Assembly: GCA_023251535.1 (NCBI GenBank)
Contig: JAHEYP010000011.1
Location: 25,104 to 89,103, forward strand
Length of the DNA: 64,000 nucleotides
Reading direction: 5' to 3'
From: Bacteroidota bacterium
GTDB taxonomy: Bacteria; Bacteroidota; Bacteroidia; AKYH767-A; OLB10
Shown: positions 6,799 through 35,335 of the stretch, in pieces
Layout of the letters: the number at the start of each line of letters is the position of its first letter
Position numbering within the stretch: position 1 is the first letter of the stretch
Notes under the pieces: generated by a model
Told to the model about the DNA's origin: nothing
Seen by the model: the letters and a program-made list of their open reading frames with translations, nothing else
Databases searched by the model: none
Translations under genes and position numbers: made by a program

Positions 6799-6804
6799 TA
6801 TAGG

Positions 6805-7710: not shown

Positions 7711-7770
7711 TCGACCGAAATAAGCAGCTAATACCCTTTACATTTAAATAGTATATAATTACAATATATA

Positions 7771-9045: not shown

Positions 9046-9070
9046 AATGAAATAAATACCGCTTTTAGAA

Positions 9071-13460: not shown

Positions 13461-13492
13461 TAAAAAAGGCCGGGAAACCGGCCATTTTTATA
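13461..13492. terminator. Bidirectional rho-independent terminator between convergent bglB and the 253-aa T9SS gene
   Basis: aaaaaa-ggccgg-gaaa-ccggcc-atttttat. A-run and T-run flank a GC stem, so it works on both strands. Confidence 0.7.
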
Positions 13493-13509: not shown

Positions 13510-14271
13510 TTAATGACAAACAAATAATTTTTTAATAGAAGTTCCCTTTTTATTTTTCACTTCAACAAAGTACATTCCACTTTTAAGGGGCTCAAGGTTT
13601 AATGTAGCCAAATTATTTTGACTATAAATAGAGTCTGAAAATACTGAAAAACCCATTTGATTAAAAACTATTAGTTGAAACTCTTCAGAACCCTCAATGA
13701 TCGCTTTTTCATTTGCAGGATTAGGAAACAAATTGAATTTTTGAGCTGAATTTTCAGATACAGAAAGGATAGTAGGTAATATAATCTTGATACTACATTG
13801 ATTTCCGTTTAGGTAAGCTTTTAAACTATACAAATCAGTATTAGTAAACGTTGGAGTTAGTAAATTAAAACGAACTAAAGCTAAAGGAGTAAGAGTGTCA
13901 CATGGCTGGAAGCTGCTACTAGTGAAGCGAACAGTAGAATCATTAGAATTATAGTAAGACAATGGCATTAAATATGTAGTAAGGTCTAATATAGTATCAT
14001 ATTCCAAAGCATTATGATCATATTTTAAGGAAAAATCGAGAGCATAAATAGTATCATCAGAAATAATTGAAACTGGAACTTCTAAAGGAGAAGAAGAAAG
14101 ATTGATTTGAGACAAATCAAATACAACAGAATCACCTGAATCAATGGTTGAAATTTTAGCCGAATTAATATTTCCTTTAATCGAAGGAGTTTTAGTGGAA
14201 TTCTGGCTATAAATGCTTGAAGAAACCATTAAGCATAATAAAACCAGTTTAATTTTTAGTGAATTAACCAT
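13510..14271 (-). CDS. Secreted protein with T9SS C-terminal sorting domain; body homologous to the pre-CTD region of the 1134-aa neighbour
   Basis: Signal peptide; C-terminus 'FNLFPNPANEKAIIE...GMYFVEVKNKKGTSIKKLFV' is a Por/T9SS CTD. Body motifs ('ALDFSLKYDHNALEY', 'TVRFTSSSF', 'AYLNGNQ') parallel 'SLDFAMMYNQSSLHF', 'VLRFTSNSL', 'AYVNGER' in 14421..17825. Confidence 0.6.
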   Translation of the reverse strand: MVNSLKIKLVLLCLMVSSSIYSQNSTKTPSIKGNINSAKISTIDSGDSVVFDLSQINLSSSPLEVPVSIISDDTIYALDFSLKYDHNALEYDTILDLTTYLMPLSYYNSNDSTVRFTSSSFQPCDTLTPLALVRFNLLTPTFTNTDLYSLKAYLNGNQCSIKIILPTILSVSENSAQKFNLFPNPANEKAIIEGSEEFQLIVFNQMGFSVFSDSIYSQNNLATLNLEPLKSGMYFVEVKNKKGTSIKKLFVCH

Positions 14272-14360
14272 TTGTTTGTCTTTTTAGATATTTCAAATTT
14301 ACGAAGGGCAAGTATTTTGAAAGTCAAGAGCAATTTATCATTCTGTAAACTTTACATTAA

Positions 14361-14398
14361 ATAAAAAAGGTCAGTCCCCGACCGGGGACCAACCTTTT
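14361..14398 (-). terminator. Rho-independent terminator downstream of the 1134-aa gene
   Basis: GC-rich hairpin gtcccc-gacc-ggggac (14374..14389) flanked by A/T runs. Confidence 0.6.
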
Positions 14399-14420
14399 TG
14401 GAGAAAAACAGAAACAATTA

Positions 14421-17400
14421 TTACTTACTAACTACTACTCTTTTAACAGATACAGATGATCCGTTTAATACTCTAACAACATATACTCCGTTAGCTAAAG
14501 TTTGTGTGCTGAATGAAGCAGTTTCACCGGCTAAAGCCTCAGTTTGAGCAATAACTTGGCGACCTTCTACATCCATTAATTGTAATGTTGCATTTTCGCT
14601 AACCTCAACATTTAACATATCAGTTGCAGGGTTAGGATAGATATTGATGATAGATCCTGTACCAGATAATTTAGCAGAAGCTAATTCAAAAGATACTCTT
14701 TCACCATTAACATACGCAGCTAAAGCATTGAAATCAGATGCAGAAACTTCACCTTGACCGATTGCAAAACGAACTGAAACCGGAGCTTTAGATAAATCAT
14801 AGTTCTGAAGGCTATTAGATGTAAAACGAAGAACTTTATCGTCAGCATTTACGTTTGCTAAAGCTTGTAAAGAATTTGTATTATCTACAACTGAATTGAA
14901 ATGAAGTGAAGATTGATTGTACATCATTGCAAAGTCTAATGAATTTACAGCATCAACTGATTCAACGAAAACCGGAACAGTTAAATATCCATTCTCAACC
15001 ACAGCTTTTGACATATCCATTACAACCTTATCAGATGAAGATGAACGGAAAGCGTTATTAGGGCTTGTTGTTGCATAGTTACCGTTGATATCACCGATTA
15101 AAATTCCTTTGTAAGTCATTGCAGAAATCACAGGACAATCAGTAATATTTGTTGCAGGAACTGGCATACAGAATGACAATACAGGAACTTTGTATTTAGA
15201 GAATCCGATACCATCGTTATTAGGATATGTAGTTGAAATTGCAAATGCAACATCTGTAGCAACACGAGCAGTATCAACAAAGATCCAATCTTTCGATAAT
15301 TGACCGTTAGAAACACCGTTAGCATTATAGTTCCATGCTTGACGGAATTCAGGGATCATCAATACAGCACGTTGGTTAATTTGAGAAACGTCACCAGCAC
15401 TGATTACACCGTCTTCATTAACATCCATTGAAATAATGTTATAAACATTAGGAATGAAAGAAACATCATTCAATAGAACCTTACGAGCTAATAATGCATC
15501 AAATCCGTTAATCACAGGTTGAACGTCAGTAGTTCCTGGGATATCCTTATTGATATTTAAATTTAGGCCATTAGAAATAACATGAGAGAATGAACCTGTT
15601 GTATCAGGATTCACAACTACTGAAGAAGGAGTTGAACAAGATGCATCATTTCCATTGATATTTGTAGGTAAATATTGGTTTGGATTTGCAGCATTGTATT
15701 TAATTGGACTATTGTCAGCCCAGAAACTTAATTTACCTGTAAATACGCTATCTCTATGCGAGATATAGTTACCTGCTTGTACTAATTTAGCAGTAACACC
15801 ATTATAGTAACTTTCTTGTAATGAAGGAATCGTTACAGCAGATGTATCAACAGATGTAAACAATGCAGTTTTTGTAAAACCTACACAGAAAACTGTACCA
15901 GCACCTGTAAATTTAGCATTAGCTGGAGCACTTGCATTGAAGAATAAAGAGATATACATGTTGCCATTTACAGAATCAATACTATTGATTGCATCAACAT
16001 AAGAAGGGTTAATTAAGTCACTAGCAACAGTGATAGATCCAGTTGGCTTTAACTTAAGAGAGTTGTAATGTAAAACAACATCATATCCAATTACATTTTG
16101 TACAGTATCATGAGCGATTACCGGCAAGCAGAAACCAGCTTGATTACAGCTTTCATTGATAGTAGAAACATTGTAAGGAAGTGCATTAGGATCTGCAACA
16201 GAGATTGTAACAGCAGAAGAGGTAGTTACAGCACCACGGTTATCAGTAGCTTTTACAGTTAAAACAGCTGAGCCAATAACGCTTGTCCAGTTGAAGCTAT
16301 AAGGAGCAGTAGCATCGCTACCAACAAGTGTACCATTTACATAGAAATCAACTGAAGCGATTGTTCCATCAACATCTGCAGCGTTAGCAGCGATAGCTAC
16401 AACAGCAGGAGCAGTATATAAAGCACCATTAGAAGGAGCAGTAATAGAACATGAAGGAGGCACATTGTTTACACAAGTTACACCTACAGCTGAAGAAATT
16501 GTTTGAGCACCTAAGTTATCCGTTGCACGAGCAGTGATTGAATGAGCACCAAGAACTGCTGTCCAGTTAATTGAATAAGGAGCAGTGTTATCTAAACCTA
16601 AAGAAACTCCATCAACAAAGAATTCAACTGAAGCAACAGAAACGTTATCAGTAGCATTTGCAGTGATAGATACTACATCACCATTAATAACTGAAGAACC
16701 ATTTGTTGGATTAGTAATAACGCAAGTAGGAGCTGGGTTACTAGCAACAGTGATAGAAATAGTTGCAGTACTAACAGCACCTTGATCATCTGTTGCTTTA
16801 GCAGCAATAGTATGTGAACCAATTACACCAGTGTAAGAAGAAGTATAAGGTGCAGTAGCATCTACTCCAACTGAAACTCCATCAACAAAGAATTCAACTT
16901 GAGTTACAGTACCGTCAGCATCAGAAGCTGTAGCAGTTAAAGGAATTACTGTACCAGTGATAAAACTAGCTCCATTAGATGGAGAAGTAATAGCAACAGT
17001 AGGAAGTGCATTTGGAGCACCGAAAGTTCCTGTTAAGCTTGGAATTGTAATTTCAGAACCAACTGGAGAAGAAGCAACATAATTTTGTGTTCCACCTGTT
17101 GGAGTACCAATTTGAATATTCAATTCGAAATGGAAAACTCCATTTGTAGTGAACTGTCCAATTAATACACGATTTGTTGCAGTAGGACCAGAAGAACCAT
17201 TTAAAGATGCGATAGAACCATTTGATGTTGAAAATAAACCTCCAACTAAACTTACCCCATCGAATACACCTAAATCGCCATTTCCTGTATTGTTCAATCC
17301 GACAAATGTTGGTGATTCAGGAGCCACGGCAGCCATACCATCTTGAACTAAAATTTGAATTCCTGTAGAAGGATCATTATTAGTTAAGAGACCATTACTA

Positions 17401-17825
17401 TTTCCGATAGAACCATCAGTATCTTCAGATTTTAGCACTCCAGATTTTCCAACAGCGGTACCGCCAACAGAAAACCATGAGTCTAACATTACAGTATTCT
17501 TTTTAGTGTTGTTCACACTAATACCTTGAGGGCTTGTTGCACCATAATCTTCATTGTTAAAGAACGTCGTTGAAGAATTGATTAATAAAGTATGATTTGA
17601 AACTCCATACAAAGCTTGGAACTTATAACCCGGCAACATATCAGCGTAAACACGATAGGTAACAGAACCTACAGGCAATGTACCCGTGCTCCCGATAGAG
17701 TCGGCTGCATTGGAAACATAGTATTTTTCAACTATGATATTTTCTAAACCGTTTTGAGCTTGACAAACATTTGTGAATGCACTCAAAAGCGAGAATAGAA
17801 ATCCATATATCATTATTTTTTTCAT
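14421..17825 (-). CDS. Large T9SS-secreted surface protein: conserved unnamed N-terminal domain, three tandem bacterial Ig-like (Big) repeats, two copies of a second unnamed domain, T9SS CTD
   Basis: 1134 aa. N-domain 'GLENIIVEKYYVSNAADS...TYRVYADM...KNTVMLDSWFSVGG...NGSIASLNGSSGP...VLIGQFTTNG...FELNIQIGTPTGGTQNYVA' is shared with three paralogues. Big repeats end '...ATDDQGAVSTATISITV', '...ATDNLGAQTISSAVGV', '...ATDNRGAVTTSSAVTISV'. C-terminus 'IINIYPNPATDMLNVEV...GVYVVRVLNGSSVSVKRVVVSK' is a T9SS CTD. Confidence 0.7.
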   Translation of the reverse strand: MKKIMIYGFLFSLLSAFTNVCQAQNGLENIIVEKYYVSNAADSIGSTGTLPVGSVTYRVYADMLPGYKFQALYGVSNHTLLINSSTTFFNNEDYGATSPQGISVNNTKKNTVMLDSWFSVGGTAVGKSGVLKSEDTDGSIGNSNGLLTNNDPSTGIQILVQDGMAAVAPESPTFVGLNNTGNGDLGVFDGVSLVGGLFSTSNGSIASLNGSSGPTATNRVLIGQFTTNGVFHFELNIQIGTPTGGTQNYVASSPVGSEITIPSLTGTFGAPNALPTVAITSPSNGASFITGTVIPLTATASDADGTVTQVEFFVDGVSVGVDATAPYTSSYTGVIGSHTIAAKATDDQGAVSTATISITVASNPAPTCVITNPTNGSSVINGDVVSITANATDNVSVASVEFFVDGVSLGLDNTAPYSINWTAVLGAHSITARATDNLGAQTISSAVGVTCVNNVPPSCSITAPSNGALYTAPAVVAIAANAADVDGTIASVDFYVNGTLVGSDATAPYSFNWTSVIGSAVLTVKATDNRGAVTTSSAVTISVADPNALPYNVSTINESCNQAGFCLPVIAHDTVQNVIGYDVVLHYNSLKLKPTGSITVASDLINPSYVDAINSIDSVNGNMYISLFFNASAPANAKFTGAGTVFCVGFTKTALFTSVDTSAVTIPSLQESYYNGVTAKLVQAGNYISHRDSVFTGKLSFWADNSPIKYNAANPNQYLPTNINGNDASCSTPSSVVVNPDTTGSFSHVISNGLNLNINKDIPGTTDVQPVINGFDALLARKVLLNDVSFIPNVYNIISMDVNEDGVISAGDVSQINQRAVLMIPEFRQAWNYNANGVSNGQLSKDWIFVDTARVATDVAFAISTTYPNNDGIGFSKYKVPVLSFCMPVPATNITDCPVISAMTYKGILIGDINGNYATTSPNNAFRSSSSDKVVMDMSKAVVENGYLTVPVFVESVDAVNSLDFAMMYNQSSLHFNSVVDNTNSLQALANVNADDKVLRFTSNSLQNYDLSKAPVSVRFAIGQGEVSASDFNALAAYVNGERVSFELASAKLSGTGSIINIYPNPATDMLNVEVSENATLQLMDVEGRQVIAQTEALAGETASFSTQTLANGVYVVRVLNGSSVSVKRVVVSK

Positions 17826-17856
17826 TTTGATAATTATAAAAGATGTTTAGATGTGA

Positions 17857-19533
17857 TTAATTACAAGATTGATTAAATTGTCCTAGTAGAATCAAGAAGT
17901 CAACATTATTTGTAACACCATCAGTATTCAAATCTGTTGGACAAGGTTGAAGACCTGTAGTAACATTTAATAATTGAGCATATGTCCAGTCAGATAACCA
18001 GTTTTTTCCTGAAGAAGCAAATGCTCCTTTGTAAGTAACAGGCGTAAAGAATCCATTTGCAGGAGCGGCAGCACAACCACCTGAAATAGTTAAAGCTGGA
18101 TTAGGAATTGCATCAAACTTAGTCGCAACAGCATTTGTTGTATAGTTTTGACTCCATAAGTAAGTGAAACCAGGCAAAGAAGCTGAAGTTGTATTTAAGT
18201 CAGTAGTATAGAACTGAGCAGTATCAGCTGTAGCAACTGCACCTGTACCGTTTTTATCAATTGCGAAATCTTTAGTACAACCTACGAATGCATTACATTT
18301 TACTTTTAAGCTATTAGAACCATTACCATTTGCAGATGACCAGTTATGATAAGCTTCACTTGTACCTGTACGTGTTCCTAATGTTTTGATAACATTCATT
18401 CCATAACGGAAGTTAGCAAATACTGAATTGTAGATTTCACCTTCAGTTAATTCTTTTGCTTCGATTGCAGCAATACCTGAGTTATCAGAAGTAAGAACTT
18501 TCTTACCGCTACCAATCATAGTAACATTATAAATTACAGGATGTGAACGAGGAGTTAAGTTTGATTTTTGATCATCAGCATCCATTTCAAATCCGTTATC
18601 AGCATCAACACTAGCAGCTAATGTATCAGCAGTTTTTAGTCCGAAAATGAACTGAGAATTTCCACGGTAACCGTCATCCCAATCGAACATATCATCATTA
18701 CCGAATAATGTAGCGAAGTTTTTAACGTTTACTGTTCCGCCCCAGAATTCCATAGCATCATCAGCACAAGAAATAATCTCGATATGATCGATAGTTGTTC
18801 CACGTCCAACTGAACCTAAAGAAAGTCCGTTTAACTCACCACCAACCTGAAGAATTGCTCCAGCGTGACGAATAGAAACATAACTTAAAATACCTGAGTT
18901 GTCATCATCATCAAAAGATTCACCTGCAGTTAAATTTGCACCGAATTGATCGCGAGAATTTGAACTTGCAAAACCTTCAAAAGTTCCTAATCCGTTAGCA
19001 ACACAAATTTTTCCATCACCAACACCTGCTTGGAATGGTCCGTTAGCTGCTAATGTTAAATTATTTGAAGCTTTACCAGCGATACAAACTCCACCCCACA
19101 TACCTTTATTACTTAAAGCATAAGATCCATCCATTGGATCAGCTTCAGCAGTAAATACAATTTGACATCCTGGAGTTCCGTTTGCCACGATTCTACCACC
19201 ACGCATTACTGTTAATGCTGTTGCAGAATCTGCCGTTGTACGGAATCTTCCTTTAATTACTGTTCCCGGTGCAATTGTTAAACTTTTTCCACTAGGCACA
19301 TAAATTTTCTTGTCAAGAATGTACGTAGTTGCACAATTTAAAATTGTGTTTGTAGCAGTTAATTCTCCATCATTTGCTCCACCGGATGTAGCTAATGTTG
19401 ACAATAAAACTGTTGGGCGTGATGATACGGTTGGACATCCGCAATCAGCTCCAAGATTGTTCTGGGCAAAACTCGTTGCCACAGACATGACCGCAATTGC
19501 AGTCATAGCCATTTTAGTTACTAGTTTTTTCAT
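17857..19533 (-). CDS. Secreted hypothetical protein, beta-helix-like, with N-terminal 'CGCP' motif and a single dockerin/EF-hand-like Ca-binding repeat at the extreme C-terminus
   Basis: 558 aa. Signal peptide; repetitive G/N/T-rich segments suggest a parallel beta-helix; C-terminus 'DLNTDGVTNNVDFLILLGQF' matches a D-x-N-x-D-G-x-x-N-x-x-D...LL dockerin-type repeat. No canonical T9SS CTD. Confidence 0.35.
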   Translation of the reverse strand: MKKLVTKMAMTAIAVMSVATSFAQNNLGADCGCPTVSSRPTVLLSTLATSGGANDGELTATNTILNCATTYILDKKIYVPSGKSLTIAPGTVIKGRFRTTADSATALTVMRGGRIVANGTPGCQIVFTAEADPMDGSYALSNKGMWGGVCIAGKASNNLTLAANGPFQAGVGDGKICVANGLGTFEGFASSNSRDQFGANLTAGESFDDDDNSGILSYVSIRHAGAILQVGGELNGLSLGSVGRGTTIDHIEIISCADDAMEFWGGTVNVKNFATLFGNDDMFDWDDGYRGNSQFIFGLKTADTLAASVDADNGFEMDADDQKSNLTPRSHPVIYNVTMIGSGKKVLTSDNSGIAAIEAKELTEGEIYNSVFANFRYGMNVIKTLGTRTGTSEAYHNWSSANGNGSNSLKVKCNAFVGCTKDFAIDKNGTGAVATADTAQFYTTDLNTTSASLPGFTYLWSQNYTTNAVATKFDAIPNPALTISGGCAAAPANGFFTPVTYKGAFASSGKNWLSDWTYAQLLNVTTGLQPCPTDLNTDGVTNNVDFLILLGQFNQSCN

Positions 19534-19711
19534 TTGGGTTATTGATTTAGTTTAGATTCGATTTAATACAATTAAGGCCTTTTAACGAAAGCAAATGTAG
19601 AGGGCCAACAAAAATTTAAATCAAACAAGAACTTACTAAATCATTAAACTAATTAACCTAAAAAGTTAAGAGCGAAAAATGTATTTACAGTACTTTAACA
19701 TAGAGGAAACA

Positions 19712-19750
19712 TTCTAAAACAAAATTGGCTGTTACTTAACAGTAACAGCC
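19712..19750 (-). terminator. Rho-independent terminator after the FISUMP gene
   Basis: Perfect 10-bp stem ggctgttact-taac-agtaacagcc (19727..19750), with a T-run on the minus strand. Confidence 0.7.
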
Positions 19751-19769
19751 AATGCAAATTTTGTTTTTT

Positions 19770-20489
19770 TTAGTCTTTAACACATCTTATACTAAATCCG
19801 TATCCTTTATAAGTGTGTGATCGATAAACATCAGGGTTTTTATAATCGAGGTGACGAAACCAAGCCTCGTTATTTTGAGCATCATCAGTTGACGTCCACC
19901 AAAAACCGGTAGCGAATAATCCAGGATTACCATAAGTACCATCAGGCAAACGACAACTTCCTGCTAGAGCAGTAAAACCGCTCTCATTTGTAGGCCAAAG
20001 GTCTCCAAATCTTGTCCAACCTTGACCACCTTCGATTTTCATTTTTAATCCTTCATCACTCCCTCTCCAACCTGCATTAGAAGCTGAAGTTGCATTCATT
20101 CCTAAAGCTTGCTCTAATTGTTTCCACTCATCATCTGTAGGAATATGCCATCCTGACGGCGCAATTTTCTTTGGATTTGTTACTACATACCAATTATAAA
20201 GTAAACCCGGAGCAGAAGCATTACTATTATATTTACAAAACAAAGGAACAGAATCATTCCAATCAGCGTCATTTTGAGCCTGTTCAATTGGAGTACCATC
20301 GTTATAGGTTTTAACATTCAGATTTTCTGCCATCCACCATTTATCGCCAATCTTAATTGTTCTATACGTGTTACCATCAATATCTACAACAGTACTTGTT
20401 TCATGGACAACTGCTTTTTCTTCTTCCTTTGTACAAGAAACAAGAATGAAGAAACACAAAACGGCAATTAATTTAAAATAGTTTTTCAT
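19770..20489 (-). CDS. Lipoprotein with FISUMP (Fibrobacter succinogenes major paralogous, TIGR02145) domain
   Basis: Lipobox 'LVSCTKEE'; 'DIDGNTYRTIKIGDKWWMAENL', 'LLYNWY', 'PSGWHIPTDDEW', 'GFSIRCVKD' are the hallmark FISUMP motifs. Confidence 0.8.
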   Translation of the reverse strand: MKNYFKLIAVLCFFILVSCTKEEEKAVVHETSTVVDIDGNTYRTIKIGDKWWMAENLNVKTYNDGTPIEQAQNDADWNDSVPLFCKYNSNASAPGLLYNWYVVTNPKKIAPSGWHIPTDDEWKQLEQALGMNATSASNAGWRGSDEGLKMKIEGGQGWTRFGDLWPTNESGFTALAGSCRLPDGTYGNPGLFATGFWWTSTDDAQNNEAWFRHLDYKNPDVYRSHTYKGYGFSIRCVKD

Positions 20490-20521
20490 AATTCAAATTT
20501 TGATTTCGTAAATACAACGAC

Positions 20522-21844
20522 CTACTGCTTTATCATTGTTCTATTGTAAATTTCACTCTCTGAAATTGCTTTCAACATATAAACACCGGTTTCGAGATTT
20601 TGAAGGTTCAGATTAAAATTATCTTGACCTACCAATTCAATCTGTTTCACCAATACAAGAATTCCAAATTGATTGAATAATTCTACTTTCATAACTTTGG
20701 ATTTATCTCCTTTGATTAGAACATTAATATTATCTGAAGTCGGATTTGGATACACTTGGAATTCACGATTTCCTGAACTTAACGAAGGACATACTACATC
20801 TAAATTTCTGTCATTGCAAAGTCCAGGATAACAGCACATTTCCTGAACATTAAAATTTGCATCCGGATCATAGTTACAAGCTTGTTGATCCATACATCCT
20901 AATTTTATTTTAGTTAAGCAAGCTGATGAGTCACTGCAAGCAAATTGATTGCTATATTCTAAATAAAATGGATCTGTACAACCACACGAAGCTGGATATT
21001 TCAAAAATGGCGAAACGCGTTCTGTCACTACTATTTGATTTTGAATATAACTTGTATCCTTTCCATCAGCAACATATCTTATCAAATTCCCAGAAGAATC
21101 TTTCACTTCTAAGTTAATTTCAAAATTAATGTCACCTATTGTTGTTAATTGCGCAACTAAAATTCTATTCAATGAATCAAATCCAAAAGCACCAGAACAT
21201 TGTAACATCGCATTATTGCTTTCGAAATACGATTTCGTATTATCGCCGAAAATACTAGTATCTGTTGAAGACAATAAAGGTAAATCTCCAGAAGGTAAAT
21301 AATTTGTAGGAATAGCTGCTACTTGAACTAAACCATCTTTGTCGGTTACAGGTATTCCCGCAACAGAGCTAGTATTACTAATTAATCCCGGGCTAATTCC
21401 TTCACTGCCTCCATCATTATAGATGCCTCCAACAATCGAGCTATCAGGATCACCAGCTTTAAGAATTCCTAAATGTTTCTTAGATGCAGCACCTAAAGAA
21501 ATCCAGCTATCAAGAGCTACGGTATTCTTACTCAACTTTGTATTATCAATATCATATCCGTAGCTTTTACCTCTGTCTGTATTGTTAAAAAAGACATTAG
21601 TACTAAAGAATTTAAGTTTATGCAACGAGTCCCCGTAAATTTTAGTGATAGAACTTCCTTGTGCCAAATCCACAAATACACGATAAGTTATTGATCCCAT
21701 AGGTAAGAATCCACCATCTGTATCTGCTGAATCATTTGCATCGGAATAATAATATTTCTCTACAATAACATTTTCTACCTGGCTATAGCCTTTTGTAACG
21801 ATTAGTGTAGAAAGCATTACCAATAATGCTAGTATATATTTCAT
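20522..21844 (-). CDS. Paralogue of the secreted N-domain family, with a Cys-rich insert and T9SS CTD
   Basis: 440 aa. 'VENVIVEKYYYSDANDS', 'TYRVFVDL', 'KNTVALDSWISLGA', 'ILVAQLTTIGDINFEINLEV'. Cys-rich 'CGCTDPFYLEYSNQFACSDSSAC...GCMDQQACNYDPDANFNVQEMCCYPGLCN'. CTD 'FQVYPNPTSDNINVLI...GVYMLKAISESE'. Confidence 0.65.
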   Translation of the reverse strand: MKYILALLVMLSTLIVTKGYSQVENVIVEKYYYSDANDSADTDGGFLPMGSITYRVFVDLAQGSSITKIYGDSLHKLKFFSTNVFFNNTDRGKSYGYDIDNTKLSKNTVALDSWISLGAASKKHLGILKAGDPDSSIVGGIYNDGGSEGISPGLISNTSSVAGIPVTDKDGLVQVAAIPTNYLPSGDLPLLSSTDTSIFGDNTKSYFESNNAMLQCSGAFGFDSLNRILVAQLTTIGDINFEINLEVKDSSGNLIRYVADGKDTSYIQNQIVVTERVSPFLKYPASCGCTDPFYLEYSNQFACSDSSACLTKIKLGCMDQQACNYDPDANFNVQEMCCYPGLCNDRNLDVVCPSLSSGNREFQVYPNPTSDNINVLIKGDKSKVMKVELFNQFGILVLVKQIELVGQDNFNLNLQNLETGVYMLKAISESEIYNRTMIKQ

Positions 21845-21848
21845 TTTT

Positions 21849-24800
21849 TTACAGTTTGTAATTTAAACTTAAAATGTAGTTTGTCCCGTAGGTATATTTA
21901 TCGTAATCTAAGGTATATCCTTCGTCATAATTGTACGAACGTCGTACCGGAGTATTTAAAATATCTTTTACAGTAAAGGATACGCCAAAGTGGGATCCCA
22001 ATTTCTTAGAAATCTTAACATCAAATATATTTCTAGAAAGTTCATAAATATCTGGCACTTCTTTTACATCAGCAGCAACTACTAACCTTGGACCTTGCAC
22101 ATTGTAAGTCAACGATACATTTAAACCTATGCTATCAGCAGTGTAGGATAATATTCCGTTAATTACATATGGAGCTTGACCAAACATAGGCCGAGTAATT
22201 GTATCCTGCGGAATAAATGTTTTAACTCCGCCAGTAACTTCCATTCTTGTTCTGACGAATTCAGTTTCAGATTTAGCTAAAGTCACATTAGCTCTAAATT
22301 CGAAATGTTCGTTGAGTTTCTTTCTTCCTTCTAGTTCAATTCCCATTACTTTCGATTTGTCGACATTTTGCCAACTTATACCTGCTGAATTCACCAATTC
22401 GATATGGTTCTTGAAGTCTTTATAAAACACGCTAAACGAAAGATTGTCGCCCGATTTAAAATAATTCTCAAGTCTTAAATCGTAATTTTTAATTTTCACC
22501 ATTTTCAGGTCTGAATTACCAAAAACAAAAGCGCGGTATTCATAATCGTATGCTGCTACATCTGATAACTCACGAATGCTTGGTCGAGCTACAGACCAAC
22601 TGTAATTCAATCGCACATTTAAAGGAGCATCTTCATCAAAACGCAATTTATATACAAGATTAACACTAGGGAGGATACTTAATTCATCCAATTTACCGGG
22701 ATTAGCTGCGGGGAATCCCTCTTTATAATCGCGACGAGGATCGTTAGCAGGTAAATTCAAGGAATCAAACTTCACAACATCTGTGTAAATTTTTGCTTGT
22801 TCAACTCTTACTCCACCTGAAGCACGCAGTCGTTCAGTGATTGAATAATCACTCATCACATATCCTGCATAAATATTGCTTCTTCCAAAAGTATGGTTAG
22901 CCGGACTTACATCATTTGTATAATAATGTTGGAATGTAGAAGAAGTAACACCATCAATCGATGTTGAAGTTTGAATGTCGAATGTATTGAAATTAAAATA
23001 TTCGTTCAAATCTTCGTTAGTTAAAACTTTCGCTGCCGGTCCAAAGTTAACCTCGTAATCATATTGATCACTCTCTTTATAATTATAAGTATAGGAACCA
23101 CCTACCTTCAATTTTCGAGGCAAACCGGGTTTGTTTCCTAAAGGAAATTCACCGAATAATCTTGAATCAAATAAATCATCTGATAAGTAGCGATAATATC
23201 TATGTACTCCATCTCCAATGGTACCACCTATTTGATACGTATTCGTTATTGGATCTTTATAGTATTGAACATTTTTAAAATCAGGTGCTGAACTATTTCC
23301 ATCTGTATAAGATGCATTGCCTTCCAACTTTAACTTCAATTTCGGAAAATAATTCTCCGACTTCAATTGATAAATTAATTGACGTCGCTGTTCATAGAAT
23401 TGACTTTTTGTAATAACGTAATTCGCTGGTTCTCTATCATCGATCGAACTTCGCACATTATTTACACCTATATAATTTGGCATAAACATTAAAGAAACGC
23501 TATTATTTTTATCATACTTGTAGGCAACATTTAGTAATGCACTCCAACCATTTGTTTCACGTGTTACGTCCTGCTTTACAGAGCTTGAAACAGTATTCAC
23601 CAAATTACCATTTCCATCATCGGCAATTGCTGCTCTATTTGATGTAGAGCTAGGGTCACTAACAACTGAAGAATTATACTTTAATCCCACGATAAAACCC
23701 AATGGCTTTCCAAATAATTTTGTTTGATTCCCGATTGAAAAACTTTGACTAAAATTCAGTGGCGCCTTCTTTTTAATTGAATTCCAACTATCCGAAAACT
23801 GTGTGCCAGTTGAAGGAACTCCTGCATTCAAAATAGAAAAAGCGTTTGATTTATAAGGACCTTTAACATACTCAAGTTTAGCTGCATTAAATGCATCAAT
23901 GTCATTAATTTGTCCAGGAGCTAGCAGCCCGAGTTGAATTAACCCCAATTTATAATAGGTATCATTCCAAGGAGTATTTCCATTTACGCCAAGTGAAGAA
24001 TAATAATCTCCTAAACCTAATGCAACAAATTCTTGGTAAGTACTTGGAGTAATAATTGCTGAATTAAAGTTACTATGATCAACATCTCTTAATCCATTAT
24101 CATATCCCAACCAATCTGAAGAACTATGATCGGAAGAAAGTATATCTTTAAAAGTTGACTGACTATTATAGCCGAGCGATGATTCGATATTTACACTTAA
24201 TTTCTCGGGATAATCTTTTGTTTCCACCGACAAAAATGCTCCTGCCCAATCACCCGGAATATCAGGACTAGCGGTCTTAGTAATAAACACATTATCGATC
24301 AGACTTGAAGGGAATAAATCAAGTTTAATATTATTTGTAAAAGGATCAAGAGTTGGAATAATTGATCCATTTAAAGAAGTCTTAACATATCTATCTCCAA
24401 TTCCTCTCACAGTTATAAAACCTCCATTCGTTGATACTCCCGAAACTCTAGATACTGCTGCAACGACACTGGCATCTCCTGTTTTCTTCATAGTTTCAGA
24501 GGAAACATAATCGATTGTAGTCGCGGCATTTTTCTTTACCATTTCAGTATAATATTCCTTCCCCTTAACAGCTTTTGCTGCAACTTCCACTTGTTTAAAT
24601 TCCATTGCGGAAGATTCCATTACCACATCCTTATCAACAACTTTTCCGTTGACAGGATTAACTGTTACCTCAACAGATTTATAACTTACATAAGAAAAAA
24701 CTAATACTTGTTCACCCGGAGTTTTTATATCAATTGAATAATTTCCATCAAAATCAGTACTGGTACCTACTGCGTGATTACTCTTTAACATAATAGTTAC

Positions 24801-24914
24801 ACCAATAAGCGTTTCGCCTGACTTATCGATTACTTTTCCACGAACAATTCCTTGACCAAAAGAGGTTAAGGATGAAAATAAAACTATTATAACTAATGTA
24901 ATGAGCCTTTTCAT
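21849..24914 (-). CDS. TonB-dependent outer-membrane receptor with N-terminal CarboxypepD_reg-like domain
   Basis: 1021 aa. Signal peptide; 'GIVRGKVIDKSGETLIGVTIMLK...TDFDGNYSI' (CarboxypepD_reg); plug 'DYVSSETMKKTGDASVVAAVSRVSGVSTNGGFITVRGIGDRY'; long beta-barrel-like remainder. Not obviously SusC/RagA type, and no SusD gene nearby. Confidence 0.75.
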   Translation of the reverse strand: MKRLITLVIIVLFSSLTSFGQGIVRGKVIDKSGETLIGVTIMLKSNHAVGTSTDFDGNYSIDIKTPGEQVLVFSYVSYKSVEVTVNPVNGKVVDKDVVMESSAMEFKQVEVAAKAVKGKEYYTEMVKKNAATTIDYVSSETMKKTGDASVVAAVSRVSGVSTNGGFITVRGIGDRYVKTSLNGSIIPTLDPFTNNIKLDLFPSSLIDNVFITKTASPDIPGDWAGAFLSVETKDYPEKLSVNIESSLGYNSQSTFKDILSSDHSSSDWLGYDNGLRDVDHSNFNSAIITPSTYQEFVALGLGDYYSSLGVNGNTPWNDTYYKLGLIQLGLLAPGQINDIDAFNAAKLEYVKGPYKSNAFSILNAGVPSTGTQFSDSWNSIKKKAPLNFSQSFSIGNQTKLFGKPLGFIVGLKYNSSVVSDPSSTSNRAAIADDGNGNLVNTVSSSVKQDVTRETNGWSALLNVAYKYDKNNSVSLMFMPNYIGVNNVRSSIDDREPANYVITKSQFYEQRRQLIYQLKSENYFPKLKLKLEGNASYTDGNSSAPDFKNVQYYKDPITNTYQIGGTIGDGVHRYYRYLSDDLFDSRLFGEFPLGNKPGLPRKLKVGGSYTYNYKESDQYDYEVNFGPAAKVLTNEDLNEYFNFNTFDIQTSTSIDGVTSSTFQHYYTNDVSPANHTFGRSNIYAGYVMSDYSITERLRASGGVRVEQAKIYTDVVKFDSLNLPANDPRRDYKEGFPAANPGKLDELSILPSVNLVYKLRFDEDAPLNVRLNYSWSVARPSIRELSDVAAYDYEYRAFVFGNSDLKMVKIKNYDLRLENYFKSGDNLSFSVFYKDFKNHIELVNSAGISWQNVDKSKVMGIELEGRKKLNEHFEFRANVTLAKSETEFVRTRMEVTGGVKTFIPQDTITRPMFGQAPYVINGILSYTADSIGLNVSLTYNVQGPRLVVAADVKEVPDIYELSRNIFDVKISKKLGSHFGVSFTVKDILNTPVRRSYNYDEGYTLDYDKYTYGTNYILSLNYKL

Positions 24915-24981
24915 TTTCTACTTATATAAGCAAAACGAGGAACTTGTACTTGTTGTACAAATTCCTCGTTATCTTTCTGAA

Positions 24982-26067
24982 TTACTTCTTAACTAATTTT
25001 TGAGTTGATTGAACTCCATCAACATTTGCAACAACTAAATATAGTCCACTAGAAAGAGACGATATATCCATTTGTTCATTGATATTTCCGGAAACAAAAC
25101 CTATATTCTTTTGTACTAAAACCTTTCCTGTTAAATCAACAACTTTATAAGATACTTCAGCGTTATTTAAATTACTTAATCGTAGATAAGAATAGTCAGT
25201 AGCAGGATTTGGATAGATACTTACATTCGCATTTTTAGCGCTATGTGATTGAACTCCTACAGTCGACGAATAAGTCAAACTTGCCATTTGAATTTCAGTT
25301 CCTACAGGTGTATCAGCAACATAATTTTCAACTCCACCAGTTGGGGTTCCAATTTGAATGTTCAACTTAAAAGAAAGTGTACCATCAGTTGTAATTTGAG
25401 CAATTAATACTTTGTTATCAATAGGATCAGGTCCGAAAGATCCGTTTAATGATGCCCATGAACCATTATATGTCGAGAAAACTGGTCCATTCGTTCCATC
25501 ATTTTGGTTATCGAATACCGTTATTTCATTTGAAATTCCTACTGCAGTTACCGGTTCAGGAGTTCCAGCAATAAAACCATCTTGTACAGTTAAAGGAATG
25601 CCTGCTGCAGGATCATTGTTTTGCAAAACCATAGGACTGTAATTATTTATTACATTAGCATTGCCATCATCATAAATTTTCATGATTCCATACTGGCCAT
25701 TGCATGCAGCACCCACTGACAACCAAGAATCAAGCATTACTGTATTTTTAGCAGCTTGAACTTTAGTAAATGTTGGAGAAGTAGCACCTCTATCTTCGTT
25801 ATTCCAAAACAACGTAGTAGTTTCAATTCTTAATTCATGGTCTGGAACACCATAAGCTGCTTGAAATTTATATCCTTGAAGCATGTCGGCGTAAATCCTA
25901 TAAGTAACAGATCCAACTGGTAAAATTCCTCCATCAGGATCAGCATTAGAATCATTTGCGTCCGAAACATAGTACTTTTCAACGATTACATTTTCTAAGC
26001 CATTCTGTGCATTCGTTGCACAGTTTATTAAAGTTAGTAAACTAACGAGCAAGTAGATTTTTTTCAT
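24982..26067 (-). CDS. Paralogue of the secreted N-domain family with T9SS CTD
   Basis: 361 aa. 'GLENVIVEKYYVSDANDS', 'TYRIYADM', 'KNTVMLDSWLSVGA', 'NGSWASLNGSFGPD', 'VLIAQITTDGTLSFKLNIQIGTPTGGVENYVA'. CTD 'VSIYPNPATDYSYLRL...GLYLVVANVDGVQSTQKLVKK'. Confidence 0.65.
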   Translation of the reverse strand: MKKIYLLVSLLTLINCATNAQNGLENVIVEKYYVSDANDSNADPDGGILPVGSVTYRIYADMLQGYKFQAAYGVPDHELRIETTTLFWNNEDRGATSPTFTKVQAAKNTVMLDSWLSVGAACNGQYGIMKIYDDGNANVINNYSPMVLQNNDPAAGIPLTVQDGFIAGTPEPVTAVGISNEITVFDNQNDGTNGPVFSTYNGSWASLNGSFGPDPIDNKVLIAQITTDGTLSFKLNIQIGTPTGGVENYVADTPVGTEIQMASLTYSSTVGVQSHSAKNANVSIYPNPATDYSYLRLSNLNNAEVSYKVVDLTGKVLVQKNIGFVSGNINEQMDISSLSSGLYLVVANVDGVQSTQKLVKK

Positions 26068-26255
26068 TTCAATAAAGAGTTTCTGTTTTACAGTTTTAAT
26101 TGCTCGTCAAAATTGAGCATTGATCTTTATTGAAAATCGACTAAACCATTACGTTTGAGTTAAGCGGTATTTATTAAAACATTATCGCAAAACAATTCGT
26201 TAACATTGTATCAACATTGATTGAGGAAATGGAGTTGCTCTTAACTTCAAAAATA

Positions 26256-27341
26256 CTATTTGGTAACTTCCAAAATAATTGAATCGGAAGTCTTAACAGC
26301 ACCTTTATCATCGTAAGCTATCGCATGTACTTCCATTTCACCTTCTTTAACTGCTTTCCAACTCATAGTATAAGGGGCAGAAAATTTCTCTGATATTTTT
26401 ATATCATTAACATAAAAAGAAACTTTCCTTATAGATCCATCTTGATCCAATGCATTTGCAGCAATCGTTATATTATCATCAACCTTAACATTACCTTTAC
26501 TCGGTTTGATGTTTAATGAAATTTCAGGCAGAACATTTTTTAGCTGAGGATAAATCAATGAAGGAATTTGGAATTCCGCGCCGTTTGGATTTCTTGCTAC
26601 ATAATTTTCAGTTCCACCAAGTGGTGTGCCTAATTGCATATTCAACTCAAATGAAAGCTGGCCGTTTGTAGTAAGTTGAGCAATAAGTACAAAATTGGAA
26701 GTATCGGGTCCAAAGGCTCCTCCAAAAGAAGCCCAAGATCCATTTTCAGTAATAAATTCCTCTCCTTGTTTTAGTGAGTTTGTATGTCCAAACATCGATA
26801 AAGAAGTAGAATCCAATCCAAAAACCGTTACTACACGTTGAGGAGTCGCCGCTTTAAGCCCATCTAATCTTTTAATTGGGACTCCGGCGTCAGGATTAGT
26901 ACTTTGCAAAATACTATCAATATTTTTGATCGTATTAAATTCAACATCTCTCGACTTTAACACTGCTGTATGACCATCTGAGCCCGCCCCAACAGATATC
27001 CAGCTATCAAGCATTACTGTATTATTCGATAAAAGTTTTGGTTCAATTTCATTTGCATAAAATCCACCTGCGAATTCGTTATTAAAAAAGTAGGTGGTAG
27101 ATCCTATTTTAAGAGGATGTCCTTCAATCCCATATATTGCTTGTAAACTATATCCTGGTTTCATATCAAGCCAAATACGATAAGTAGTTGAATTCGGAGG
27201 TAAATATCCTCCGGTTTGAACCTTTGAATCGGCAGTATCCGAGATATAATATTTCTCGATGAAAATATTTTCTAGCCCCTGCTGAGCCTCGGCACTCACA
27301 AAAATGCAAGTAAGTGCTATAATCGTAAGTATTGTTTTCAT
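26256..27341 (-). CDS. Paralogue of the secreted N-domain family ending in one Big-like Ig domain (no T9SS CTD)
   Basis: 361 aa. 'GLENIFIEKYYISDTADS', 'TYRIWLDM', 'NTVMLDSWISVGA', 'NGSWASFGGAFGPD', 'VLIAQLTTNGQLSFELNMQLGTPLGGTENYVA'. C-terminus 'ALDQDGSIRKVSFYVND...AYDDKGAVKTSDSIILEV' resembles the Big repeats of the 1134-aa protein. Confidence 0.65.
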   Translation of the reverse strand: MKTILTIIALTCIFVSAEAQQGLENIFIEKYYISDTADSKVQTGGYLPPNSTTYRIWLDMKPGYSLQAIYGIEGHPLKIGSTTYFFNNEFAGGFYANEIEPKLLSNNTVMLDSWISVGAGSDGHTAVLKSRDVEFNTIKNIDSILQSTNPDAGVPIKRLDGLKAATPQRVVTVFGLDSTSLSMFGHTNSLKQGEEFITENGSWASFGGAFGPDTSNFVLIAQLTTNGQLSFELNMQLGTPLGGTENYVARNPNGAEFQIPSLIYPQLKNVLPEISLNIKPSKGNVKVDDNITIAANALDQDGSIRKVSFYVNDIKISEKFSAPYTMSWKAVKEGEMEVHAIAYDDKGAVKTSDSIILEVTK

Positions 27342-27595
27342 GATTTGGATACAAAACTAGATTTGTAATTACGATTCCATTTTACCCCAACTTTAAGTTT
27401 ACATCAATAATCCAACTACTACTTTCCCTCATTTAATGGATAATTCGAGAATACCCTTAGCATCAAAATCACCTCTAAAAACAATGATCTTCCTAACAAT
27501 CGATTGTTTACTTAAAAGCAAATATTTTACAGAAGCAAATTGCTTATTGAATTACTTTGCATTTTCTTAACCTTTCCTTTACAGGTAAGCTAAAA

Positions 27596-28948
27596 ATGAT
27601 CAAAAAACTGCTAAATAAATCGGGAGAAGGCGAAAGCGATGGGTCTTTCTTCTTGAAGAAGAGCTTTTTGGCGCTGATTCTCAGGGCCGGAGGGATGCTC
27701 ACGCAGTATATTTTCATTTTTGTGATTGCTCGCCTCTACGGACCAAAAGAGCAAGGAAGCTTTACTCTTTCCTTCACCATTCTACAATTATTTGCCATCT
27801 TTTCGCAGATGGGGCTCGATAATCGACTCACCAGAGTGATTGCTGCCAATAGCGATTCCGAAGGCAAAAACATCGTCCGTTCAACTTATCTGCAGTCACT
27901 TCGATTCACACTTACAGCTGCCGTAATTTGGGCAATACTCACCTATTTGGCTTCACCGTGGTTGGCGTCAGTCTTCTTTAGTAAACCAGAACTTACCGAT
28001 GATTTACGTATGACCTGCCTAGCATTTGTGCCCTTCGTTATTATCGGCTTAAACAGTGCAGGCTTCCGAGGATATAAAAACATGACGGGCTTTATGATCT
28101 TTAGGGCCCTACAACCATTGATCGCAGCAATTCTTCTGCTCATTTTTTATTACGGAAAAATGGAATTGGGTGCTATACAAGCTTATAGTATTACCACCAT
28201 CATCATTTGTATCTTCAGCTTTACTACTTGGTATAAGTTTAGTAAAATCGGTGAAGCCGAAACTATACCAACTCCAAATGCAGGTTCAGTGATGATGGAA
28301 TCGATGCCATTGATGCTTACCGGTTCTATCTTTTTTATTCTTGGATGGACAGACAACATTATTCTGGGAATTTTCAGAACTTCGGAAGAGGTAGGTATTT
28401 ATGATATGGCTTATAAGCTTTCCACTTTATCGGCTATAGTTTTATTAGCAGTAAATGCCATTCAAGCACCAACCTTTGCTCAACTCTATAATAAGGGTGA
28501 AATGAAGCGACTTCAAGGATTCGTTTTTCGCTCTACTAAATTGCTTTTTTTCACCTCACTACCTGTTACTTTAGTGCTTTGCCTTTTCCCTGAATGGATA
28601 TTGGGAATATTTGGACCAGGATTTAAAGCTGCTGCCCTTACACTTATTATCTTATCTATTGGTAACTTTGTAAACAGCATTACCGGCTCTATCGGCATCT
28701 TGCTGCAAATGTCGGGGAAACAGAAAGAATATAATCGAATAATAATGATTGCTGCAGGGGGCAGTATTCTAATGAACTTTATTTTGATTCCGAGAATTGG
28801 AATTGTTGGTGCGGCTATCTCATCAACAGTTGCTAAAATATTTCAGAATCTGGCATCCGTTGCATACGCAAAAAGATCGATGGGAATACTTTCATTGTAT
28901 TTACCGGGAATTGATAAAATATTTAAAGTAAAAGATAAAAATAACTGA
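27596..28948 (+). CDS. MOP-superfamily polysaccharide biosynthesis protein / Wzx-like flippase
   Basis: About 450 aa with more than 10 TM helices, PST-family look. The ORF track starts at a TTG (27557); the ATG at 27596 (MIKKLL...) with an upstream TAnTTTG-like element at 27553..27559 is more plausible. Confidence 0.65.
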   Translation: MIKKLLNKSGEGESDGSFFLKKSFLALILRAGGMLTQYIFIFVIARLYGPKEQGSFTLSFTILQLFAIFSQMGLDNRLTRVIAANSDSEGKNIVRSTYLQSLRFTLTAAVIWAILTYLASPWLASVFFSKPELTDDLRMTCLAFVPFVIIGLNSAGFRGYKNMTGFMIFRALQPLIAAILLLIFYYGKMELGAIQAYSITTIIICIFSFTTWYKFSKIGEAETIPTPNAGSVMMESMPLMLTGSIFFILGWTDNIILGIFRTSEEVGIYDMAYKLSTLSAIVLLAVNAIQAPTFAQLYNKGEMKRLQGFVFRSTKLLFFTSLPVTLVLCLFPEWILGIFGPGFKAAALTLIILSIGNFVNSITGSIGILLQMSGKQKEYNRIIMIAAGGSILMNFILIPRIGIVGAAISSTVAKIFQNLASVAYAKRSMGILSLYLPGIDKIFKVKDKNN

Positions 28949-28962
28949 GCGGAAGAAAAGCG

Positions 28963-29922
28963 ATGACGAATATTAAGAAAGAACCGAACTTTTTTGTGAT
29001 AGGTGCAGCTAAATGCGGTACCACCACCTTATATGATTTTCTTGAACATCATCCGGAAGTGTATATGTCGCCAATAAAAGAGCCACATCATTTCAGTAAG
29101 GATATAGTTAAAGAAAATTTTAGTGATGAATATAAACACTACCTCAAAACTCGTAATGTAAATTTAGAGGAATATTTAAAAACAGATTTCTCTAGAAAAA
29201 TATGGGAATGGTATATCGACGATTTTAATCAGTACTTGCAACTCTTTAAAAAAGTTAGTAATGAAAAAGCTATCGGAGAAATAAGTAATGGATATTTATT
29301 CTCTTCGGTAGCAGCTAAAGAAATCAAAGCCCAATACCCCGATGCTAAAATCGTAATGATTTTACGAAACCCGATTGAAAGAGCTTATTCGCATTACTTA
29401 GCGAACGTGAGAGACGGTAGAACAACACTTAGTTTCAAAGAAGAGTTGATAGCAGATGCTCAAAAAAGCAATAAAGGCTGGTGTATCTCTCATTGCTATA
29501 CTGAAATGGGATTATATTACGATCAGGTTAAAAGATTTACTGATGAATTCGATAAAGATCATATTAAAATTTACTTGAACGATGATCTTAAGAAAAATGC
29601 TGAACAAGTAGCGAAAGATCTTTTCACATTCTTGGGCGTTAACACTAAAGTGGATATCGATTATCATAAAAAACAAAATGAAGCTCGCTTGCCTAAGTCG
29701 GCAGGGTTCATGAAGTTTATTACGCAAACAGGACTGAAACGTAAAATTTTCAGATCTATGCCAAAGAGCATTCAGGAAAAAGTTAAGCCTCTGTTCTTTA
29801 AAGAAGGTAAGATTCCGAAAATGTCGGATGCTGATCGCAAATGGCTATCTGCTCAATTCAGCGACGATATCCATAAAACACAAAATTTAATTGGAAGAGA
29901 TTTATCCTCTTGGCTTAATTAA
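28963..29922 (+). CDS. PAPS-dependent sulfotransferase (Sulfotransfer_1-like)
   Basis: 5'-PSB loop 'FFVIGAAKCGTTTL' and 3'-PB 'MILRNPIERAYSHY' (R...S). Confidence 0.8.
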   Translation: MTNIKKEPNFFVIGAAKCGTTTLYDFLEHHPEVYMSPIKEPHHFSKDIVKENFSDEYKHYLKTRNVNLEEYLKTDFSRKIWEWYIDDFNQYLQLFKKVSNEKAIGEISNGYLFSSVAAKEIKAQYPDAKIVMILRNPIERAYSHYLANVRDGRTTLSFKEELIADAQKSNKGWCISHCYTEMGLYYDQVKRFTDEFDKDHIKIYLNDDLKKNAEQVAKDLFTFLGVNTKVDIDYHKKQNEARLPKSAGFMKFITQTGLKRKIFRSMPKSIQEKVKPLFFKEGKIPKMSDADRKWLSAQFSDDIHKTQNLIGRDLSSWLN

Positions 29923-29934
29923 TCCGCTTTCAGA

Positions 29935-31790: not shown

Positions 31791-31793
31791 GAA

Positions 31794-35319: not shown

Positions 35320-35335
35320 GCGTAGTAATACTTAA

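Follow-up and report, generated by a model that had tools for sequence, protein, structure and literature searches.

We describe a cassette of eight genes in a 64,000-nucleotide stretch of DNA from a Bacteroidota bacterium (positions 25,104 to 89,103 of contig JAHEYP010000011.1, assembly GCA_023251535.1; hereafter the window), in which four proteins with a common N-terminal domain (the N-domain) are encoded around a TonB-dependent receptor (TBDR), together with a FISUMP lipoprotein, a beta-helix protein and a small cohesin-like protein. We tentatively favor a model in which the cassette is a SusD-less capture-and-import system of uncultured environmental Bacteroidota, with binding heads anchored by way of a type IX secretion system (T9SS) serving a TBDR that is not of the SusC type. 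We arrive at this model because the N-domain genes are in strict synteny with the gene of an importer, because one of the N-domain paralogs (class B) is exceptionally conserved and because the cassette includes a lectin-type surface lipoprotein. An earlier note on this DNA had drawn attention to the same genes; the open reading frames (ORFs) that it listed are all present, all eight on the minus strand, and its identification of the neighbors as a TBDR, a FISUMP lipoprotein and a beta-helix protein (PF28492) is confirmed by family profiles. In the literature on T9SS, TonB-dependent receptors, FISUMP, cohesin or dockerin, we found no description of this cassette.

A shared N-terminal domain without described relatives

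The four N-domain copies, which define paralog classes A to D (Table 1), can be aligned along ~247 residues that immediately follow the signal peptides, with ~60 invariant columns, so that the shared domain proposed in the earlier note is real. Pairwise BLASTP comparisons among the copies gave 37–58% identity (E = 2.5e-41 to 5.7e-85), and a profile search of the window recovered exactly four copies. The domain had not been recognized as any named family, and our searches agree: Pfam-A gave no match, even at E values up to 10, and neither did NCBIfam at the same limit. Homologs consisting of the N-domain only had no assignment in a newer precomputed Pfam set, and a search of PDB sequences gave no significant match (best E = 0.38). 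The family comprises at least 2,384 clusters at 90% identity; an exhaustive search returned 1,233 clusters when grouped at 50% identity, of which 875 had E <= 1e-10, and all sources with a named organism are uncultured Bacteroidota.

A structural model of the N-domain alone reached a predicted local distance difference test score (pLDDT) of 90.8 and a predicted template modeling score (pTM) of 0.91. It predicts a beta-sandwich whose strands (residues ~4–63 and 176–230) are split by a loop-rich insert of ~110 residues (64–175), and this insert holds the most conserved motifs: FFNNEDRG, NTVMLDSW and several D-G pairs. The polar residues that do not vary across the family, numbered along the class B N-domain, are E10, D41, F67, N69, D93, N198, Q204 and T206, plus Y36, R37, S94, D113 and D143. 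A fold search with the full 361-aa class B model was dominated by matches to its T9SS C-terminal domain (CTD) and was uninformative on the N-domain, and the search was rerun with the N-domain alone. That comparison with the PDB by Foldseek, a fold search of the kind suggested in the earlier note, returned nothing at E <= 0.001 (best TM-score 0.29). Profile-profile alignment (hhalign) of the N-domain with the cohesin-like module of the same locus gave a probability of 0.13%, with no detectable homology. We regard the N-domain as an undescribed domain family that, as far as its sequences indicate, has no catalytic signature, and we infer that it binds a ligand.

Gene order around the receptor

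A scan for the cassette with one genome per species yielded 75 loci, all in metagenome-assembled genomes (MAGs) from lakes, activated sludge and soil; the habitats include Lake Mendota, Rimov, Lake Zurich and Danish activated sludge. Wherever the contig was long enough, gene order was fixed, in ~70 species-level MAGs: class A (usually without a CTD), class B, TBDR, class C, FISUMP, beta-helix, a long N-domain protein and a cohesin-like CTD protein. A forest-soil relative found via its beta-helix protein has the same order. Cassette genes recur in 47–74 of 74 loci, a range limited mainly by contig ends, and the genes flanking the cassette in the window recur in at most nine. Directly upstream of the TBDR gene lies a class B gene in 63 of 64 loci; the position directly downstream is taken by class C in 53 of 53. 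The earlier note had linked the N-domain family to the transporter and proposed their co-occurrence as a check; the fixed order, with flanks that are not conserved, supports the link far more strongly than the single sequence could. The paralog classes themselves are ancient and bound to their positions.

Median identity to the window across species is highest for the class B N-domain (69%), followed by the beta-helix protein (55%), the TBDR (54%), the FISUMP protein (50%), the class C N-domain (45%) and the cohesin-like CTD protein (34%). A class B N-domain that is more conserved than the TBDR fits a conserved ligand or partner and would be unusual for a fast-evolving adhesin.

Export signals and layout of the paralogs

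As had been noticed earlier, three of the N-domain ORFs (classes B, C and D) end in T9SS CTDs; these score above both Pfam and NCBIfam cutoffs, as does a CTD in the 253-aa ORF. Across the four proteins, scores were 46–50 bits for PF18962 (cutoff 27) and 38–46 bits for TIGR04183 (cutoff 23). CTD profiles gave no match in class A or in the beta-helix protein. The signal peptides of the four CTD proteins, read directly from the sequence, are hydrophobic leaders ending in A-x-A before Q, and the CTD, of ~75 residues, is modeled as the beta-sandwich fold of known T9SS substrates. T9SS delivery of three of the four N-domain paralogs (B, C and D) is well supported. The previous description of the whole family as T9SS-delivered holds for these three and fails for class A, which is consistently without any T9SS signal and therefore does not qualify. 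In Porphyromonas and related species, removal of the CTD from T9SS type A cargo is followed by tethering of the protein through its C-terminus. The window also encodes a further T9SS cargo protein outside the N-domain family (36500..37822, minus strand), in which a Kelch-repeat beta-propeller precedes a type A CTD.

The class A N-domain spans residues ~20–265 (window 26547..27284). The protein has a signal-peptidase-I leader, with neither a T9SS CTD nor a lipobox, and its Big_7 domain matches all three repeats of the 1134-aa class D protein (E = 6e-13 to 5e-9), in agreement with the earlier statement that the two proteins share a Big-like domain. In other genomes, the gene at this position encodes a CTD in four of 42 cases and none in 38. 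These orthologs are mostly a signal peptide and an N-domain alone (265–310 aa), with an ordinary signal-peptidase-I leader and no lipobox. The class A position is thus mostly without CTD or lipobox, and the cassette conserves a paralog that has no recognizable way of crossing the outer membrane.

In class B, the N-domain (residues 21–267, window 25267..26007) is followed by a linker of ~15 residues and the CTD (284–359), which is present in 60 of 64 loci. Class C has its N-domain at residues 21–284 and, between it and the CTD, a Cys-rich segment of ~90 residues (~285–360; GCTDPFYLEY...ACNYDPDAN...CC...C) that gave no match in Pfam, is kept in all 53 genes at this position and is probably a disulfide-rich stalk; the class C CTD is present in 49 of 52 loci. 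Class D comprises an N-domain (24–266), three Big_7 domains (~270–545), a Dockerin_1 segment (771–818), a cohesin-like module (~930–1060) and a CTD (1062–1132). Its Dockerin_1 segment scores 25.2–29.8 bits against a Pfam cutoff of 22.9, and three of the four full-length class D orthologs also have one (30.5, 23.6 and 17.6 bits, above the cutoff in two).

The 253-aa ORF had been called homologous to the domain that precedes the CTD in the class D protein. It does match residues 930–1122 of that protein (E = 7e-25), a stretch that also spans the CTD. The Pfam Cohesin match in the 253-aa protein is marginal (25.9 bits, cutoff 24.1). Its orthologs, which are located at the cassette end or just before the cassette, gave scores near the threshold in three of six (24.4, 20.1 and 19.3 bits) and no match in the other three. 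On these marginal scores, the domain in question would be a cohesin-like module, with accompanying dockerin-like segments.

The N-domain outside the cassette

Family members range in length from 270 to >2,000 aa, and their N-domain almost always begins near residue 20. Among 40 sampled long members, 33 have a CTD at the end; the modules between the N-domain and the CTD are Big_7, TSP3, EF-hand, PKD, Big_2, SprB and MAM, with no catalytic domain recurring among them. Two N-domains together with TSP3, EF-hand and MAM are present in a 2182-aa marine TARA protein (L078:363-6911, plus strand). On a 5.6-Mb contig (L079:1-15821, plus strand), three tandem giant T9SS genes encode proteins of 2481, 1502 and 979 aa, all with N-domains, one of them with three copies. 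Because it is spread across T9SS proteins in this way, the N-domain is an extracellular head that T9SS cargo uses generally, and the TBDR cassette represents one specialized, highly conserved use of it. A domain at residue ~20, followed by stalk-type modules and a CTD, has the apparent layout of a distal binding head. A different architecture within the family occurs in a 1135-aa protein (L073:100-3507, plus strand), whose remaining ~870 residues have no Pfam match.

The same proteins speak for an adhesin or surface-coat family, in which the N-domain would be an adhesive head for particles, algae or cells and the TBDR either independent or a membrane platform. The N-domain heads giant tandem T9SS proteins bearing MAM, TSP3, EF-hand, SprB, PKD and Big_2 modules and having no TBDR nearby, there are weak fold matches to fungal and Gram-positive adhesin heads (Als9, SdrG, GspB and pilus tip adhesins), and no catabolic genes accompany the cassette. 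However, adhesins would not readily explain the strict, class-specific synteny with a TBDR across ~70 species while the flanks change, nor why the essentially stalkless class B gene is the best conserved of the cassette (69% against 54% for the TBDR), which is atypical for adhesins. The conserved class A paralog cannot act as a surface adhesin, because it has no export signal beyond Sec. We therefore consider an adhesive role of the cassette unlikely.

The receptor and its partners

Both the plug (PF07715, 38 bits, cutoff 23.9) and the barrel (PF00593, 98 bits, cutoff 27) of the TBDR are clearly recognized. The SusC/RagA model TIGR04056 scores far below its cutoff (66.3 bits against 368) and over residues 24–174 only, and PDB profile matches to SusC homologs reach no further than the N-terminal extension and plug. 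The interval 13510..27341 is filled by the eight genes, of which none matches a SusD family in Pfam or NCBIfam, and across 74 loci no SusD gene is co-conserved with the cassette. The locus had been described as non-Sus and as lacking a SusD homolog, and both statements stand. For all 25 TBDR orthologs, the best curated family is TIGR01782 (TonB-Xanth-Caul), matched over the C-terminal half of the barrel with a best E value of 5e-56. This subfamily includes carbohydrate importers such as MalA and SuxA.

A second alternative is hemophore-like scavenging, in which membrane-proximal N-domain proteins, exported as T9SS cargo, would deliver a cofactor, metal complex or vitamin to the TBDR. A self-contained cassette free of catabolic enzymes is what one would expect for a cofactor; the very high conservation of class B fits a chemically invariant ligand; and a hairpin after the class B gene, described below, permits a binding protein in excess of the receptor. 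Surface B12-binding lipoproteins are known to be paired with TBDRs in Bacteroidota, and we count them in favor of scavenging. Nonetheless, the window TBDR has no similarity to siderophore, heme or B12 receptor families, and such families gave only sporadic, weak matches in some orthologs, whereas all 25 match TonB-Xanth-Caul. No ATP-binding cassette (ABC) importer is co-conserved, matches to YcnI were not significant, and no Fur- or Zur-like box was noticed by eye in upstream regions of the window, no cross-locus motif search having been made. The long stalks and the lectin-type FISUMP and beta-helix partners also fit polymers better than small ligands of this kind. We judge scavenging to be quite unlikely.

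The FISUMP domain of the lipoprotein is strongly supported (PF09603, 144 bits against a cutoff of 33.9; TIGR02145, 108.9 against 41.65). From its lipobox Cys, the protein reads C-T-K-E-E-E-K, which corresponds to the lipoprotein surface-export signal of Bacteroidota, K-(D/E)2 or Q-A-(D/E)2 shortly after the lipidated Cys (PMC5080379), here in its K-(D/E)2 form. At least two D/E residues lie within seven residues of the lipobox Cys in 35 of 39 orthologs. FISUMP-type domains have been grouped with C-type-lectin-type ligand-binding proteins diversified by retroelements, as targets of diversity-generating retroelements (PMC5758913).

The beta-helix protein belongs to PF28492 (Beta_helix_4) in a newer Pfam release and has at least 1,489 homologs, all annotated 'hypothetical'. 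Its orthologs conserve an N-terminal NLGAxCGCP and the acidic motifs DDNDNSG, DDxxExxGGTVN and DNGFExDADDQ, and six of 27 have weak G8 matches. In the window protein, the C-terminus (residues 531–557) is a Cys-bracketed dockerin/EF-hand-like segment, CPTDLNTDGVTNNVDFLILLGQFNQSC; orthologs strictly conserve it as CPTD(I/L)NxDGxTNNxDFLxLLGQFNxSC, a single loop-helix that resembles half a dockerin or EF-hand. Sequence searches of the PDB with the TBDR, FISUMP and beta-helix proteins yielded no relatives apart from those of the SusC-type N-terminal extension of the TBDR. At one locus (L021:345-5226, minus strand), a second, separate beta-helix and TBDR gene pair, divergent, adjoins a full cassette. 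This arrangement hints that the beta-helix/TBDR pair may be an older core unit to which the N-domain genes were added later.

Class A and the beta-helix protein are two conserved cassette members with a Sec signal only, and this would also fit a receptor that acts outward or as an anchor, exporting or holding the two proteins. The receptor has a CarboxypepD_reg-type N-terminal domain, and a precedent exists in Myxococcus, where the TonB-dependent transporter Oar is required for secretion of the protease PopC (PMC6434023). But the N-terminal extension matches the Bacteroidota SusC/RagA-type extensions of importers, and the receptor has no specific link to Oar. It is simpler to place class A and the beta-helix protein in the periplasm, in parallel with the periplasmic components of polysaccharide utilization loci (PULs). 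An outward-acting receptor is thus very unlikely.

Transcription signals and surroundings of the cassette

Terminator-like hairpins stand 3' of the class B, FISUMP, 1134-aa and 253-aa genes (Table 1). The one between class B and the TBDR gene folds at -26 kcal/mol (z = -7.4) and would let the cell produce more class B than receptor. In ~25 of 64 loci there is a similar hairpin, its stem unrelated in sequence. We rejected a universal attenuator at this position, a stable hairpin being present in only these ~25 loci; the feature is recurrent, not defining. By eye, a TAnnTTTG-type promoter motif, TACATTTG, lies upstream of the beta-helix gene, after the FISUMP hairpin, and another lies upstream of the class A gene. 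The palindrome at the cassette end is common to the last cassette gene (253-aa) and a convergent glycoside hydrolase family 1 (GH1) gene.

Table 1. Genes and terminator-like hairpins of the cassette, with positions in the window
Feature	Position	Strand	Description
Class A N-domain paralog, 361 aa	26256..27341	-	Signal peptide, N-domain, one Big_7 Ig domain
Class B N-domain paralog, 361 aa	24982..26067	-	Signal peptide, N-domain, linker, type A T9SS CTD
Terminator-like hairpin between class B and TBDR genes	24934..24970	-	15-16 bp stem, then T-run
TonB-dependent receptor (TBDR), 1021 aa	21849..24914	-	CarbopepD_reg_2 extension, Plug, 22-strand-type barrel
Class C N-domain paralog, 440 aa	20522..21844	-	Signal peptide, N-domain, Cys-rich segment, type A CTD
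FISUMP (Fib_succ_major) lipoprotein, 239 aa	19770..20489	-	Lipobox LVSC, then TKEEEK
Terminator-like hairpin 3' of FISUMP gene	19724..19753	-	
Beta-helix protein, 558 aa, PF28492 Beta_helix_4	17857..19533	-	Signal peptide; no CTD or lipobox
Class D N-domain paralog, 1134 aa	14421..17825	-	N-domain, three Big_7, Dockerin_1 segment, cohesin-like module, type A CTD
Terminator-like hairpin 3' of 1134-aa gene	14364..14399	-	16 bp stem, 7 G-C pairs, T-run
Small predicted surface protein, 253 aa	13510..14271	-	Signal peptide, cohesin-like module, type A CTD
Bidirectional terminator-like hairpin, cassette end	13468..13483	-	Perfect palindrome GGCCGG-NNNN-CCGGCC, T-runs on both strands

In the window, the cassette splits an apparent sulfated-polysaccharide biosynthesis region (4326..9889 and 27557..36514, both on the plus strand). 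On one side (4326..9889), a sulfate symporter, CysC, CysD, CysN and CysQ would supply 3'-phosphoadenosine 5'-phosphosulfate (PAPS); on the other (27557..36514) lie a Wzx flippase, four sulfotransferases, a Wzy-like polymerase, a GH5 enzyme and glycosyltransferases. It is pure speculation that an anionic sulfated surface polymer might serve as an anchor for T9SS cargo. A sensor kinase with Reg_prop propeller repeats, Y_Y_Y and His_kinase (528..3422, minus strand) has the sensing layout usual among PUL regulators; its gene is 10 kb away from the cassette, and only one other locus has it beside the cassette. The GH1, GH5 and sensor kinase genes are not conserved neighbors. The flanking GH1 gene, the PAPS-synthesis genes and the sulfotransferase/Wzx/Wzy cluster were considered as parts of the system and rejected, as they lie beside the cassette in at most nine of 74 loci.

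Discussion

In the model that we favor, T9SS cargo with a common N-domain head would serve a non-SusC TBDR in place of a SusD lipoprotein. The CTD would be removed after secretion and the protein tethered by its C-terminus, so that the N-domain would always be the distal end. The heads would then stand at different heights: class B, with almost no linker, at the membrane beside the transporter, class C raised by a short Cys-rich stalk, and class D by one of ~800 residues made of Ig, cohesin and dockerin modules. A surface-exposed, lectin-type FISUMP lipoprotein and the beta-helix protein would complete the set, and the parts may be assembled through cohesin-like modules (in the 253-aa protein and class D) and dockerin-like segments (at the C-terminus of the beta-helix protein and in class D). 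Ligand caught by the long-stalk heads would be handed over to the membrane-proximal heads, the TBDR would import it, and the CTD-less class A copy may receive it in the periplasm. As the ligand, we favor a glycan or other polymer fragment because of the family affinity of the receptor, the stalked heads and the lectin and beta-helix partners. The full version of this scheme, a new TonB-dependent uptake machine in which T9SS-anchored heads of an unseen fold replace SusD, at graded distances and in the periplasm, with cohesin- and dockerin-like modules holding the parts of a relay that hands ligand from the medium to the transporter and into the periplasm, seems to us unlikely as a whole.

Several observations weigh against a capture-and-import function. 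Neither class A nor the beta-helix protein has a recognizable means of crossing the outer membrane. Cohesin and dockerin assignments have marginal scores, and the only PDB profile match of the beta-helix protein, to a dockerin on its C-terminal segment, is non-significant (E = 0.078). The window TBDR itself falls below the TIGR01782 cutoff (174.5 bits against 310). When all non-cassette ORFs of the 75 loci were clustered, no co-conserved regulator, carbohydrate-active enzyme (CAZyme) such as a glycoside hydrolase or a lyase of a known family, peptidase, inner-membrane transporter or periplasmic binding protein of a known type was found, and the cassette therefore lacks the usual identifiers of a substrate. 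Finally, no TBDR was found within 8 kb of the giant N-domain proteins of the TARA locus and the 5.6-Mb contig, and the general role of the N-domain therefore need not be linked to a transporter.

Like SusC/SusD PULs and utilisomes, the cassette has an outer-membrane TBDR with a Bacteroidota-type N-terminal extension, encoded with several predicted surface accessory proteins, including a lipoprotein with a surface-export signal, and the logic is probably the same, surface capture followed by import. Unlike them, it has no SusD, its receptor fails the SusC/RagA model, its accessory proteins are mostly T9SS cargo rather than lipoproteins, and it has no co-conserved CAZyme or regulator. We rejected membership in a SusC/SusD PUL on the SusC score, the missing SusD partner and the missing CAZymes and regulator. 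With TonB-Xanth-Caul systems, found in carbohydrate utilization (CUT)-type loci of Xanthomonas and Caulobacter, the cassette shares its best curated receptor match and the lack of SusD, but it belongs to a different phylum and differs in its Bacteroidota-type extension, its T9SS cargo partners and its sub-cutoff score. Judged by its genes, the cassette would work like a Sus-type or CUT-type uptake locus, although it fails the membership tests of both.

The individual parts also have partial counterparts. As in gingipain-type T9SS cargo and multi-modular T9SS enzymes or adhesins, a Sec signal and a CTD of ~75 residues enclose a functional module that lies N-terminal to stalk domains; here, however, that module is undescribed, the paralogs surround a TBDR and one class either lost the CTD or never had it. 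The Pfam Cohesin match in a small CTD protein and the Dockerin_1 match in class D, both recurring in orthologs, recall cohesin-dockerin assemblies, but the scores are marginal, the beta-helix segment appears to be a single loop-helix rather than a duplicated dockerin, and there are no cellulosome-type enzymes. HmuY-HmuR and BtuG-BtuB resemble the cassette in that a putative membrane-proximal surface binding protein, which may be in excess, is encoded beside a TBDR. They differ from it in that the partner here is T9SS cargo and not a lipoprotein, has a different fold and comes as several head paralogs per locus, next to a receptor of neither the heme nor the B12 type. Taken singly, the T9SS and TBDR components are ordinary for their families; it is their combination and the N-domain that are new.

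Among the major degraders of lake, soil and wastewater organic matter are the Bacteroidota, whose feeding is known almost entirely from the SusC/SusD systems of cultured gut and marine species. The cassette described here has so far been seen only in uncultured lineages. Its N-domain merits a family definition of its own and, because this 248-residue domain is small and confidently modeled, binding and structural work on it is feasible. If the N-domain is the ligand-binding part, the phylum would have a second general way of capturing nutrients at the outer membrane, and the cassette would be the first case in which T9SS cargo acts as the partner of a receptor.

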